From a virus, in the IMG/VR virus record IMGVR_UViG_3300027977_000008, positions 96,001-160,000 of that record: 64,000 nt of DNA. One strand, given 5' to 3'. Positions within the stretch are counted from its first letter, which is position 1, and the number at the start of each line of letters is the position of its first letter. Below are positions 11,442 through 42,672 of this stretch, one piece after another. A program made the position numbers and the translations under genes. Under the pieces are notes generated by a model. That model ran no database searches, was not told the origin of the DNA, and was given only the letters and a program-made list of their open reading frames with translations.

Positions 11442-11482
11442 AAATAAGTTAGGAAATGAAGACAAAACTTTACGATTCCTCA

Positions 11483-18064: not shown

Positions 18065-18514
18065 ATGACAAAACTACCAAATAACCCTTTAGTTTCTGAA
18101 GTTTTTAAAGCTGCACACGGCGGTAAAACTATAGAACGAAAGATTGAAATCTTACAAGAACACAGAAGTAATCATATCAAATCACTTTTGATTTGGAACT
18201 TTGATAAAGGAATTGAAACTATTCTTCCACCTGGTGAAGTTCCTTATAGAAAGAATGAAGCACCTGCAGGAACACCAGGACATACAAGACTTGCCCATGA
18301 ATGGAAGGTGCTTTATAACTTTATCAAAGGTGGCAATGACAAGATCTCACATATGAAACGTGAGCAAATGTTTATTCAACTTCTTGAATCACTTCATGCT
18401 GATGAAGCAGAGATTGTTACTCTAGTAAAAGATAAGGAATTGCAGTCTAAGTATCGCATCACCAGGAGTGTTGTTGAGCAAGCATATCCAGAAATTGTTT
18501 GGCTAGATAAGTGA
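18065..18514 (+). CDS. Conserved T4-like phage hypothetical protein
   Basis: LIWNFD....LPPGEVPY..N, KREQMFIQLLESLH.DEAE. Confidence 0.75.
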   Translation: MTKLPNNPLVSEVFKAAHGGKTIERKIEILQEHRSNHIKSLLIWNFDKGIETILPPGEVPYRKNEAPAGTPGHTRLAHEWKVLYNFIKGGNDKISHMKREQMFIQLLESLHADEAEIVTLVKDKELQSKYRITRSVVEQAYPEIVWLDK

Positions 18515-19626
18515 TTGGAATTTTCATTGATATAACAGATCATTGCAATTCTAAATGTCCTCTTTGCACTAGACACAAAGTTTCTAAATTTACAAATGTT
18601 GTAGATTTAGTTCCTACAACATTTGTAAATAGATCATCAGTGTCTATTGAAACTTGGAAAACTTGGTTTTCCCCAAAAGTTCTTGAGAATATTTCTTTTA
18701 TAAACTTTCAAGGATCATTTGGGGAACCAAGTTTATGTGAAGATTTACTAAAAATAATTAAGTATTCAAGATTTATCAATAAAAATATTAATATTTTGAT
18801 GAGTACTAATGGAGGAACAAGGGATAAAAATTTTTGGAAGTCTCTTGGTAGACTTTTATTTTTTTCAACTCCCAACTCTAGAGTAATTTTTTCTATTGAT
18901 GGGTTAGACGATACACTAGCAGAATATAGAGTTGGGGTTGATTACAATAAAGTTATAGATAATGCCACTGCTTTCATTTCTGGTGGTGGTAATGCAGAAT
19001 GGAGGATGCTTGTCTTTAAGCATAATGAACATCAGATTGAAATCTGTAAACAAATATCCAAACAACTTGGATTTAAAAAGTTTTCCCACCAAACGGTGAA
19101 TGGGTTTTGGGATACTTCTGGCATGGGAAGTGGATCTTATAGTTACGTGTATAATGGTAAATTAAAAACTTTACAAGAAGCTTCTGACCCTAAGTATACA
19201 ACTAATCGAGGAAAGACAGAGAAAAATTCAGATATTCATTGTGACTTCAATCACAAAATAAATTCTATAGGAAATCTCAGAATAGATAGCATGGGGATAG
19301 TTCATGCTTGCTGCTATCATCAATCTAGACTAAGGTATTTTTATCCCGATTATTATATCAATAAAAATCCAGACGCAAAACCAGTTTATGATGAAAGTAT
19401 TGATAATCCTAATATGGGATCTGGTGTAAAATATTTGCATAAAATTTTTTACGATAGTATTATACCTTTGATAGAAGAGCAGGGTGGATTAAAAAGTATT
19501 AATTTAAATTACTTTTCTTTAGATGAAATTATTAACACTCCATTTTTTCAGCATAGTTTAATTTCATCGTGGAAAAATCCTGTACATATGTGCAGAGAAA
19601 ATTGTGGTATTTCTAGAATAAAATAA
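18511..19626 (+). CDS. Radical SAM protein with Cys-rich (SPASM/Twitch-like) C-terminus
   Basis: CNSKCPLC, GSFGEP, STNGG, FSIDGL, C...ACC...C...CG. Confidence 0.85.
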   Translation: MIGIFIDITDHCNSKCPLCTRHKVSKFTNVVDLVPTTFVNRSSVSIETWKTWFSPKVLENISFINFQGSFGEPSLCEDLLKIIKYSRFINKNINILMSTNGGTRDKNFWKSLGRLLFFSTPNSRVIFSIDGLDDTLAEYRVGVDYNKVIDNATAFISGGGNAEWRMLVFKHNEHQIEICKQISKQLGFKKFSHQTVNGFWDTSGMGSGSYSYVYNGKLKTLQEASDPKYTTNRGKTEKNSDIHCDFNHKINSIGNLRIDSMGIVHACCYHQSRLRYFYPDYYINKNPDAKPVYDESIDNPNMGSGVKYLHKIFYDSIIPLIEEQGGLKSINLNYFSLDEIINTPFFQHSLISSWKNPVHMCRENCGISRIK

Positions 19627-19640
19627 GTAACAAACTATAC
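19627..19640 (+). promoter_or_regulatory. Putative NtcA binding site
   Basis: GTA-ACAAACTA-TAC fits GTA-N8-TAC, 8 nt upstream of a -35 box. Confidence 0.55.
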
Positions 19641-19648
19641 AAAATTAC

Positions 19649-19677
19649 TTGCATAGATAGTGTATAGACGCTATAAT
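19649..19677 (+). promoter_or_regulatory. sigma70-type promoter
   Basis: TTGCAT-N17-TATAAT. Confidence 0.7.
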
Positions 19678-19684
19678 GTGTCTA

Positions 19685-19725
19685 CGTTCATTCGCAAATA
19701 GCGAACGCAAGTAAGTCGCGGAACG
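19685..19725 (+). ncRNA. glnA-type glutamine riboswitch aptamer 1
   Basis: P1 CGTTC/GAACG, P2 TTCGC-AAATA-GCGAA, junction CGCAAGTAAG. Confidence 0.7.
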
Positions 19726-19728
19726 GAG

Positions 19729-19894
19729 CGTTCATCTATGGAAGCAGTTCTTATTACTTGTTTGCAACTTGGACAATTAGTTGGCAGGGTTAATCAATCT
19801 TATGCTCCTGCCATAGTGAAGAGGTAAATTATAGAGGAACTCGTAAGAGTTTCGCCAAAGAAGTGCAGCATAAATGCAAACGGATGAAGGAACG
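19729..19894 (+). ncRNA. glnA-type aptamer 2, with an ORF inserted in place of P2
   Basis: Second CGTTCA at 19729 closes with ATGCAAAC-GGATGAAG-GAACG at 19874-19894. Confidence 0.55.
19738..19887 (+). pseudogene. Small ORF nested in aptamer 2, interrupted by an in-frame TAA at 19825
   Basis: MEAVLITCLQLGQLVGRVNQSYAPAIVKR*IIEELVRVSPKKCSINANG*. Confidence 0.5.
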
Positions 19895-19926
19895 GACCTA
19901 AAAATCCATTCATTCAGGAGAAACAA

Positions 19927-20058
19927 ATGACTACTGCAACGTATAGAGGAGTAAAGTATGACGTTGAAGAGCGTAAATTAAATGTTCTTCAACTTCTTAA
20001 AGATCAAATTGAAAAAGCAGAGCGCCTTAAGCAAGCACAAATGCAACTAAAAGGATGA
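19927..20058 (+). CDS. DUF4278-type small protein (not in ORF track)
   Basis: MTTATYRGVKYDVEERKLNVLQLLKDQIEKAERLKQAQMQLKG; YRGVKY motif; CAGGAG SD at 19915. Confidence 0.75.
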   Translation: MTTATYRGVKYDVEERKLNVLQLLKDQIEKAERLKQAQMQLKG

Positions 20059-20064
20059 TTGATT

Positions 20065-20100
20065 GGGAGAATTGACTTTCCCCTTTTTTATTGGTATAAT
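20065..20100 (+). terminator. Terminator overlapping the next sigma70 promoter
   Basis: GGGAGA...TTTCCC plus T-run; TTGACT(20072)-N17-TATAAT(20095). Confidence 0.6.
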
Positions 20101-20123: not shown

Positions 20124-20306
20124 ATGCGGTACAAGGAAACAATCCGCCTAGTCAAAAAAGCACTAGAGCAACCTTGGAAATATTCTGATGCTGAACTCTT
20201 GTACATGAGAAAGGCTTTAGATGATGCTACCTTAGGATTAGCAACAAAGAAATTTAACAAGAAAAAGAAAAAAGGATTTGGTTATCATGACAGTGCGATT
20301 GATTAG
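20124..20306 (+). CDS. Small conserved cyanophage protein upstream of thyX
   Basis: KKALEQPWKYSDAELLYMRK...KGFG; GGAGG SD. Confidence 0.6.
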   Translation: MRYKETIRLVKKALEQPWKYSDAELLYMRKALDDATLGLATKKFNKKKKKGFGYHDSAID

Positions 20307-20919
20307 TGCGACATCAGATGCAGAAAAAACAATGGCATATATTGCTAGAGTTTCTAATCCTGCAAATCAAGATAATGAAAACTATACAGGTTTGTTACGT
20401 TATTGTATCAAGCACAATCATTGGTCTGTGTTTGAGCACGCTTTTATGACTTTGGAAATTGAAACGAACCGTGGTATAGCGGCTCAAGTGCTCCGACATA
20501 GAAGTTTTACATTCCAAGAATTCTCACAACGTTATGCTGATACAAATCTTTTAGCAGAAGAAATACCATTACCAGAACTTCGTAGACAAGATACTAAAAA
20601 TCGTCAGAATTCTATTGATGATATTGATGAGGAGAAAGTATTCGTAATGAATAAGATGATTAGAGACCTGTTTAAGGACGCTCAAGACACGTACAACTTT
20701 CTTTTGGAACAAGGAGTAGCAAAAGAATGCGCTCGTTTTGTGCTTCCTTTGGCAGTAAAAACAAAAATTTATATGACTGGATCTGTCAGGTCATGGATTC
20801 ATTATATTAATCTTCGTTCTGCAAATGGAACTCAGAAGGAGCATATGGATATTGCAAATGAGTGTAAAAAAGTATTTGTGGAACAGTTTCCTGCGGTATC
20901 CGAATCACTTGAGTGGTGA
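20287..20919 (+). CDS. thyX: Flavin-dependent thymidylate synthase
   Basis: HWSVFEH and RHRSFTFQEFSQRY (RHRx7S) motifs. Confidence 0.95.
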   Translation: MTVRLISATSDAEKTMAYIARVSNPANQDNENYTGLLRYCIKHNHWSVFEHAFMTLEIETNRGIAAQVLRHRSFTFQEFSQRYADTNLLAEEIPLPELRRQDTKNRQNSIDDIDEEKVFVMNKMIRDLFKDAQDTYNFLLEQGVAKECARFVLPLAVKTKIYMTGSVRSWIHYINLRSANGTQKEHMDIANECKKVFVEQFPAVSESLEW

Positions 20920-42478: not shown

Positions 42479-42553
42479 GGGACTGTTGCTTATTGGTTAA
42501 ATCCGTCGCCTTATAAGCGGCAGAACTGAGTTCAATCCTCGGCGGTCCTACCA
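42479..42553 (+). tRNA. tRNA-Ile(UAU)
   Basis: Acceptor GGGACTG/CGGTCCT, anticodon arm GTCGC-CTTATAA-GCGGC, T arm CTGAG-TTCAATC-CTCGG, encoded CCA; D-stem has a mismatch. Confidence 0.8.
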
Positions 42554-42554
42554 T

Positions 42555-42639
42555 GGGAGCGTGGTGAAATTGGTAGACACAACAGACTTAAAATCTGTCG
42601 AACGTAGAGTTCATGTCGGTTCAAGTCCGACTGTTCATA
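42555..42639 (+). tRNA. tRNA-Leu(UAA), possibly degenerate
   Basis: ACAGA-CTTAAAA-TCTGT, long variable arm, GTCGG-TTCAAGT-CCGAC; weak acceptor stem GGGAGCG/TGTTCAT; no CCA. Confidence 0.75.
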
Positions 42640-42672
42640 TTATCTAAATAAAAAAAATTACTTGTTATAAAA

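Follow-up and report, generated by a model that had tools for sequence, protein, structure and literature searches.

A stretch of cyanophage DNA was found to contain a predicted glutamine-sensing RNA module that encloses a whole protein-coding gene, in a copy that has decayed. The stretch, referred to below as the window, comprises 64,000 nucleotides (nt) of the IMG/VR virus record IMGVR_UViG_3300027977_000008 (positions 96,001 to 160,000 of 171,943 nt) and derives from a T4-like freshwater cyanophage; a PhotoRC-II RNA is present at 11470. Four independent lines of covariation and the fold returned by RNAalifold indicate that the module consists of two three-way junctions of the glutamine-I (glnA) type, nested at the two ends of a shared helix, P3, and that a gene for a small protein with two Cys residues occupies the loop of the inner P2 hairpin. 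We consider it highly probable that this architecture, and the decay of the window's copy, are correctly described. The same layout was found at more than 250 distinct viral loci, a recurrence far above chance, and the locus has its relatives in myoviruses of Synechococcus and Prochlorococcus. Relative loci are denoted by L-numbers (for example, L025 and L069) and metagenome runs by X-numbers. The four repeated strands are designated, in 5' to 3' order, A (first CGUUCA), B (first GAACG), C (second CGUUCA) and D (second GAACG).

All elements of the module lie on the plus strand. The outer junction opens with strand A as the 5' strand of P1 (CGUUCA, 19685-19690), with the conserved A after CGUUC in place. 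Its partner, strand D (GAACG, 19890-19894, followed by the linchpin base G19895), was assigned from linchpin covariation in relatives and from RNAalifold. The outer P2 hairpin (UUCGC-AAAUA-GCGAA, 19691-19705), whose equivalent covaries in 56 compact relatives, is shorter than in L025 and L069 by a 7-nt deletion. The strand joining P2 to P3 (outer J2/3, CGCAAGUA, 19706-19713) fits the RF01739 consensus CGGAAGUA and conforms to CG(G/C)AAGUA, with G19895 as the partner in the linchpin pair; by analogy it would contribute to the ligand pocket the nucleotides that correspond to C17-G18-C19 in the solved structure of the glutamine-II aptamer (PMC6698751). The shared helix P3 is formed by AGUCG (19714-19718) and CGGAU (19881-19885), which leaves one G.A mismatch and one U.G wobble in the window; module-wide it is AGUCG:CGACU, with its 3' strand just 5' of the stop codon of the nested gene. 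In the segment 19885-19895, this stop (UGA, 19885-19887) overlaps both the final pair of P3 and GAAG (19886-19889), the E-loop strand, which directly precedes GAACG.

The inner junction appears to be a circular permutation of the outer one, in which P1 is closed by a loop and P3 is open. Its P1 is a local hairpin (19721-19733) with GAACG at 19721-19725, the loop G-A-G at 19726-19728 and CGUUC at 19729-19733. Inner P2 pairs UCUAUG (19735-19740), which holds the nested start codon (19738-19740), with CAUAAA (19869-19874), and is followed by inner J2/3 (UGCAAA, 19875-19880). The inner pocket nucleotides are all present (GAACGG 19721-19726, CGUUC 19729-19733 and GC 19876-19877), and only the flanking equivalent of C17 is mutated, to U19875, where relatives have CGCA. 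Neither junction has lost any of its ligand-pocket nucleotides. The gene is enclosed by three long-range helices: outer P1, P3 (AGUCG:CGGCU) and inner P2, which reads UCUAUG:CAUAGA in the intact relatives.

The first-pass annotation of the window had placed two aptamers side by side, with strand C at 19729 closing onto the distal GGAACG at 19889. Covariation in the relatives does not support this pairing: strand C pairs locally with GAACG at 19721, and the first CGUUCA, at 19685, is the partner of the distal GGAACG. Of 260 loci, 7 distinct ones have CAACG/CGUUG in place of GAACG/CGUUC in strands B and C, with no change in A or D, and in none is only one of the two strands flipped. In 6 loci the outer linchpin covaries, CGC...GGAACGG becoming CGG...GGAACGC with the second junction and strand B constant. 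Concerning P3, the G-C pair of the majority is replaced by A-U in at least 11 distinct loci and by U-A in 2, with one G.U, and uncompensated changes were found in none of 33 loci picked for an altered 5' base. The spacer between B and C varies like a loop (GAG, GAU, GAA, GUA, GAUU, GAGC) and always begins with G, the inner linchpin base. Inner P2 is typically UCCCAUG:CAUGGGA and spans 150-200 nt; at its fourth position, 113 loci have C-G (80), U-A (22), U-G (5), A-U (3) or G-C (1), and 2 are mismatched. Its mean run of 5.4 pairs compares with 4.9±0.06 in shuffled sequences and at most 2.7 in slid registers. The first four pairs are retained in at least 98% of loci, and the pairing of the A of AUG in 84%. 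The inner CGCA is nearly invariant, the third base being A in 3 of 246 loci (the first C was not among the tabulated positions). RNAalifold, applied to 56 distinct compact forms that lack the gene (83-107 nt), gave the nested fold, and each of the two small hairpins showed covariation.

At Rfam gathering thresholds there was no match at the window locus. Below threshold, the 5' half alone (19682-19732) scored 25 bits with the Glutamine-II model (cut-off 33) and 23.2 bits with Glutamine-I (RF01739, cut-off 35). The RF01739 model cannot span an insert of 150 nt, and the gene-bearing forms escape its cut-off. The gene-free locus L100 scored 46.4 bits with RF01739 from strand A to strand D, the intervening part being taken as an insert in P3, and 6 of 12 further compact loci also passed the cut-off, gene-free scores lying at 40-47 bits. 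No other aptamer exceeded an Rfam cut-off in the whole phage record.

The nested gene (19738-19887) is a frame of 49 codons broken by a TAA at 19825-19827. The first-pass annotation had described it as a two-Cys open reading frame inside an aptamer, and the features that it listed are all in place: CGTTCA lies at 19729-19734, a Shine-Dalgarno (SD)-like GGAG at 19725-19728 and ATG at 19738, TAA is codon 30 and TGA, at 19885-19887, codon 50, and the two Cys residues are encoded by codons 8 and 43. Aptamer sequence contains both GGAG and ATG, and the final TGA lies within the aptamer core (...ATGCAAACGGATGAAGGAACGG), with GGAACG at 19889-19894. The frame is a real and conserved protein gene, intact in 177 distinct relatives, and the closest of these, L025 and L069, have CAA in place of the TAA. 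Over all loci the 177 intact frames encode 47-66 residues and differ in length by whole codons; their entropies at the three codon positions are 47/27/65, and the median ratio of non-synonymous to synonymous changes (pN/pS) is 0.45. A motif scan of IMG/VR gave at least about 112 distinct intact frames, each beginning 3-5 nt 3' of CGTTCA, and among the matches listed nearly all end, in TAA or TGA, exactly 4 nt 5' of the next GGAACG; TAA is thus an ordinary stop of the nested gene in relatives. Three loci (L054, L088 and L119) start with TTG (CGTTCATCC-TTG-TAT-CAC...) and have CGAA, not CGCA, in the inner junction.

The two Cys residues are invariant across the nested proteins, which comprise phrog_504, phrog_13397 and further groups outside both PHROGs; the subfamilies are homologous after trimming of the tail encoded by the RNA elements (hhalign, 97%). 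The phrog_504 profile recognized the homologues of phages S-SSM4, P-TIM40 and S-TIM54 with E values of 1e-16 to 1e-25, and more weakly the closest intact relatives of the window (L069, 0.003; L025, 0.11). The window frame, read through its stop, did not match phrog_504. Judging from the hhalign homology and the two invariant Cys residues, the nested gene of the window appears to be a distant phrog_504-like member. At the C terminus, DAND and the stop are the aptamer core GAC GCA AAC GAC UAA read in frame, a segment made up of the inner junction, the 3' strand of P3 and the outer E-loop strand; some nested proteins terminate just before this tail. An AlphaFold 2 model is a helical hairpin (predicted local distance difference test score, 83) in which Cys12 opens helix 1 and Cys47 lies just past helix 2; comparison with the PDB gave no match better than E 2.8. 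Concerning function, nothing exceeded the Pfam threshold, PHROGs labels the families as of unknown function, and the matches in the ESM Atlas were all unnamed viral clusters. The idea that the hydrophobic N terminus marks a lipoprotein or a signal peptide is unsupported for most members, because of the acidic residue 3 and the want of a consistently small residue ahead of Cys. A leader peptide that senses Gln codons was rejected, because the Gln positions are not conserved.

Alignment with L025 and L069, both intact with 49 residues, revealed four derived changes in the window. CAA>TAA at 19825 turns a Gln codon into the nonsense codon 19825-19827. G>A at 19873 breaks the second pair of inner P2 (with C19736), C>T at 19875 strikes the otherwise invariant C of ACGCA, and C>A at 19884 breaks a G-C pair of P3 (with G19715). 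The changes in inner P2, the junction C and P3 make the nested fold about 7 kcal/mol costlier: it lies 13.2 kcal/mol above the minimum free energy (MFE) fold in the window, against 6.2 in L025 and 5.9 in L069. We then compared alleles in contigs assembled from metagenome runs. T is found at 19825 in contigs of X1 (the probable source run, depth 57), X11 and X12; all four changes are linked in X1 and X12, and the X11 contig covers 19825 only. A river contig of 2025 (X13), which with L025 and L069 is among the closest relatives, has the intact state at all four positions, with C at 19825. Since contigs of other lake samples share the changes, they are not an assembly error, and of the fates suggested for the early stop by the first-pass annotation, decay is the one that stands. 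The window encodes two adjacent transfer RNAs (tRNAs; 42479-42640), Ile(UAU) and Leu with anticodon UAA, neither of which is a suppressor, and the whole phage record contains no second phrog_504-like copy. No damage is seen in the downstream gene or its SD, nor in the outer strands or the terminator. The simplest reading of these sequences is that the nested gene and the inner sensor were lost together in the lake lineage of the window; linked decay of coding and RNA elements is weak evidence that they formed one working unit. A gene-bearing locus with other losses is L293 (360-600), which lacks the first CGUUCA, has GGAAAA for GGAACG and is left with CGUUCA-gene-ACGCAAACGACUAAAGGAACGG; it may represent another route of decay or a single-aptamer form.

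We next consider the expression signals. GGAG at 19725-19728, formed by the inner P1 loop and its neighbour, is likely to be the SD of the nested gene. In an unbiased sample seeded with the protein, the inner P1 loop begins with GAG in 71 of 77 gene-bearing loci versus 1 of 56 gene-free loci, in which GAU prevails. With the preceding G, the GAG of gene-bearing loci makes a GGAG 9-11 nt 5' of the AUG. The two G residues in question are G40 and G41 of the inner pocket; in the solved aptamer glutamine is contacted by G40, which is itself paired with C1, and G41 forms the linchpin pair with C19 (PMC6698751). That GGAG is built from these two bases is our basis for inferring competition between ligand and ribosome. 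At the other end of the module lies the expression platform (19912-19920), in which the strand AUUCAG, overlapping the downstream SD AGGAG (19916-19920), can pair with (C)UGAAG (19884-19889). In general the 5' partner is C-U-[A/G]-A-A-G, which contains the nested stop and joins the two final bases of P3 to the outer E-loop strand, and the 3' partner C-U-U-[U/C]-A-G adjoins the downstream SD. The middle base of the stop covaries with the base 5' of this SD (A:U in 29, G:C in 54 and G:U in 27 loci; A is never found with C, and there are no mismatches). This anti-SD helix and the folded outer core are mutually exclusive. When the S-SSM4 RNA is folded without ligand, the helix forms alongside inner P1 and inner P2 in the MFE fold as well as in the centroid. 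Many relatives, including L009, L024, L041, L170, L175, L182, L195 and L210, have a conserved insert of some 30 nt (AAACGGAUC-C-NNN-GNRA-NNN-G-AGAAGGUUAA), placed after the distal GGAACGG and ahead of the downstream SD, which the window lacks. Its small hairpin covaries, its flanks are conserved and no Rfam family matched it; perhaps it serves the expression platform as a structural spacer, or else constitutes a third module.

From these signals a mechanism can be proposed. Glutamine would stabilise both cores, so that GGAG and the AUG are masked and the nested gene is off; the same folding would draw the E-loop/P3 strand away from the competing helix over the downstream SD, and the downstream DUF4278-like gene would be on. 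Ribosomes on the nested gene would have to melt inner P2, P3 and the outer core, which would set translation against sensing on one RNA. The first-pass annotation had suggested gating of the nested frame by the first aptamer and unfolding of the second by transiting ribosomes. The direction of regulation given here for an intact module is tentative, and we would not be surprised to see it reversed. We regard it as possible, though doubtful, that an intact module acts as a glutamine switch with two outputs and two pockets, where the same nucleotides are contested by ribosome and ligand, with the SD drawn from G40/G41 of the inner pocket, the start in inner P2 and the stop in the outer E-loop/P3 strand. 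At low glutamine the two-Cys protein would be made, its translation would keep both sensors unfolded and the IF17-like gene would be off; at high glutamine both cores would be locked, the nested gene silent and the downstream SD free. If this is true, the window allele is a natural knock-out, and gene and inner sensor are kept or lost as a unit.

An unlikely alternative that nevertheless deserves serious attention is that the gene is a passenger in a tolerant hairpin loop, co-transcribed with the riboswitch and translated independently of glutamine sensing. Compact twins without the gene are at least as common and precede the same downstream genes, P2 hairpins vary in both length and sequence, and the protein evolves fast and has no known function, all of which suits a passenger. 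It would, however, be a passenger without a spacer, since the start lies 3-5 nt past CGUUCA at almost all loci and the stop usually falls within the P3/E-loop strand. Against it also stand the inner P1 loop GAG(N), which yields GGAG and is seen almost only where the gene is present, the maintenance of inner P2 around the gene by compensated changes, and, in the window, the joint decay of the gene and three surrounding RNA elements.

It is also conceivable, though improbable, that the window represents adaptive rewiring and not decay, so that the half containing the first CGUUCA and the first GAACG, or the outer junction alone, serves as a single sensor for the DUF4278-like gene. In the window the downstream gene and its SD are undamaged, as are the E-loop strand, the outer junction and both strands of outer P1; at least 12 lake runs contain this abundant allele, and the MFE fold of the window pairs the first CGUUC with the first GAACG. 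An outer junction acting alone, however, requires P3, which now has the G.A mismatch, and the penalty of the nested fold has risen as described above. The 5' half, for its part, is without P3 and the GAAG E-loop strand and falls below both Rfam cut-offs. This state is absent from the other lineages sampled.

Two side-by-side pseudoknots of the glutamine-II type, the second closed by CGUUCA at 19729 and GGAACG at 19889 across the gene and the first gating its translation, we judge to be very improbable. Both Rfam models give their sub-threshold scores to 19682-19732 as a self-contained first aptamer, and the MFE folds of the window and L025 pair the first CGUUC with the first GAACG. The two CGUUCA strands are identical, as are the two GGAACG strands, so either partner is chemically possible, and the side-by-side pairing could be a folding intermediate. 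On the other hand, with A and D unchanged, the compensated CAACG/CGUUG flip would leave both side-by-side pairings mismatched, linchpin covariation ties the first junction to the last GGAACGN, and P3 covariation connects the two halves. The supposed 3' strand of P2 in the first aptamer, which the RF01704 pseudoknot would need, varies like a loop and without compensation (GAG, GAU, GUA, GAUU, GAGC), and RNAalifold returns the nested fold. Least probable of all is that the TAA is an error or is read through and the window gene is functional: the record is a metagenome assembly compared with contigs only, but the same T is found in the X1, X11 and X12 contigs, three linked derived substitutions lie at otherwise conserved RNA positions, neither tRNA of the window is a suppressor, and TAA is a normal stop of this gene in relatives.

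Several observations weigh against the nested, gene-enclosing architecture or the mechanism proposed for it. The covariation that fixes the topology is limited to a small number of clades (with 7, 6 and about 13 distinct sequences), and each line may reflect one or few evolutionary events. Inner P2 is well retained in its first 4-5 pairs only, the U and G of the AUG being paired in fewer than half of the loci. MFE folds lack outer P1 or P3 and favour the pairing of the first CGUUC with the first GAACG, together with the anti-SD helix; even in intact relatives the nested fold is less stable than the MFE fold by about 6 kcal/mol, and the single-sequence fold of the window has a z score of -1.3. 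Ligand binding by either core, like the direction of regulation, is something we infer. A terminating ribosome would also melt the anti-SD helix, which would give positive coupling to the downstream gene, opposite in sign to our model. Finally, some function may be left in the unit, given that the downstream gene of the window is intact.

Turning to the distribution of the module, homologues of the nested protein are present in 309 cultured cyanomyovirus records, always annotated as 'hypothetical protein', and S-SSM4, P-TIM40, S-TIM54 and S-CAM22 have an annotated gene of 50-60 residues in the equivalent slot. A scan of host genomes with a single nested protein gave only one short contig of a metagenome-assembled genome. 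The phage and the locus were seen in lake and river metagenomes (runs X1-X18, 2019 to 2025), which shows that marine cyanophages are not the only carriers of the nested glutamine twin. As compact twins without the gene (at least 120 matches in our scan) are at least as common as the gene-bearing form, the latter can be regarded as an elaboration of an ordinary phage twin riboswitch. The outer P2 of the window lineage (UUCGCUAUU..AAUAGCGAA in L025) is found as the inner P2 of the gene-free twins L167, L171 and L178, which precede the same MTTATYRGVK gene as in the window lineage. This correspondence suggests that modules were shuffled by recombination between the repeated CGUUCA and GGAACG strands.

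The downstream gene (19927-20058, plus strand) encodes 43 residues with a YRG motif as in DUF4278/IF17-like proteins (MTTATYRGVKYD...). Its homologue in P-TIM40 is annotated as DUF4278, and the protein itself had no match in Pfam. The N terminus carries a YRGVKY motif (phrog_5049, residues 1-25), and the C terminus resembles the MNTLNLIKKQIE family (phrog_545, residues 18-41), so that the sequence looks like a fusion of two small-protein types found separately after other twins. The unit ends with a hairpin and T run resembling an intrinsic terminator (20065-20092, plus strand), which is overlapped by a near-consensus promoter (20065-20100; TTGACT, 17 nt, TATAAT, with TG extension) serving the next small gene (20124-20306, phrog_6449) and thyX (20278-20919).

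Directly upstream of the riboswitch unit ends a radical S-adenosylmethionine-like gene of 371 residues (18511-19626; PF04055, 29.2 bits, slightly below the Pfam cut-off). In the interval 19629-19677, GTAACAAACTATAC, which resembles an NtcA box (GTA-N8-TAC), lies 29 nt 5' of a perfect TATAAT (19672-19677). The usual spacing in NtcA-activated promoters is shorter, roughly 22 nt. L025 and L069 have a -35 element, TTGACT, at the place where the window reads TTGCAT, and a consensus promoter scan of the window did not call this upstream TATAAT promoter.

Among known systems, the module is closest to the glutamine-I riboswitch (glnA RNA motif, RF01739), represented by the gifB/IF17 leader of Synechocystis (PMC6212724). 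The two share the strands CGUUCA, CG(C/G)AAGUA and GAAGGAACG(G/C), a three-way junction, the linchpin C:G pair and the E-loop strand, and the gene-free compact relatives pass the Rfam cut-off. The gifB leader is proposed to be a translational ON switch for a small DUF4278/IF17-like protein, using short anti-SD pairing (PMC6212724); the phage expression platform fits this logic, which by analogy we propose here as well. Unlike in glutamine-I, the P3 hairpin of the phage RNA appears to be replaced by a circularly permuted second junction, so that two pockets share one helix, and one hairpin holds a whole gene. The gene-bearing forms, that of the window included, miss the Rfam cut-offs. The glutamine-II riboswitch (Downstream-peptide motif, RF01704; PMC6698751) has the same pocket nucleotides, C1, G2, G18, C19, C39, G40 and G41, and precedes small YRG proteins in marine picocyanobacteria. 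It is, however, an H-type pseudoknot whose P2 encloses the GGAACG loop; the equivalent in the phage RNA is a plain and variable hairpin loop, and covariation there demands nested helices.

Tandem riboswitches, such as tandem glycine and tandem glnA RNAs, likewise place two cores for one ligand in contact before a single expression platform. Glutamine aptamers are described as single, tandem and even triple (PMC2864571; PMC7161355; PMC10265488), and the text and supplements of Weinberg 2010 mention tandem glnA RNAs with neither nesting nor an internal reading frame. The phage form differs from tandem glnA as described there in being nested and permuted, with a shared P3 and an internal gene. 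In a literature search that did not cover Ames and Breaker 2011 or Ren et al. 2015, we found neither a nested, permuted fold with shared P3 nor a coding gene in an aptamer; a prior description of the nested fold in those two works is possible. Long-range helices around complete reading frames are known from homing-endonuclease and maturase genes in the loops of group I and II introns and from HEARO RNAs (PMC2864571, supplement). Those hosts are ribozymes or mobile elements, not metabolite sensors; in the phage RNA, unlike in these cases, the SD, start, C-terminal codons and stop of the gene overlap pocket and switching strands. A 2017 survey counted only two glutamine aptamers in phages (PMC5473149). 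The 99-nt 'glnA' match of 44 bits in S-CREM1 (PMC9964418) agrees, in length and score alone, with a compact twin read as one aptamer.

Riboswitch aptamers are usually viewed as compact, non-coding sensors ahead of the genes that they control. A gene inside the sensor, sharing its pocket and switching nucleotides, would be a new kind of coupling between sensing and translation, and one RNA may control two genes reciprocally. The nested, circularly permuted design is a way of building a two-site riboswitch, and the window offers a natural loss-of-function allele together with intact sister alleles. Glutamine riboswitches appear to be common in cyanophages, with hundreds of records against the two reported in 2017, and standard Rfam scans overlook the gene-bearing forms. 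Cyanophages would in this way read the nitrogen status of their hosts, which bears on infection under nitrogen limitation in lakes and oceans.

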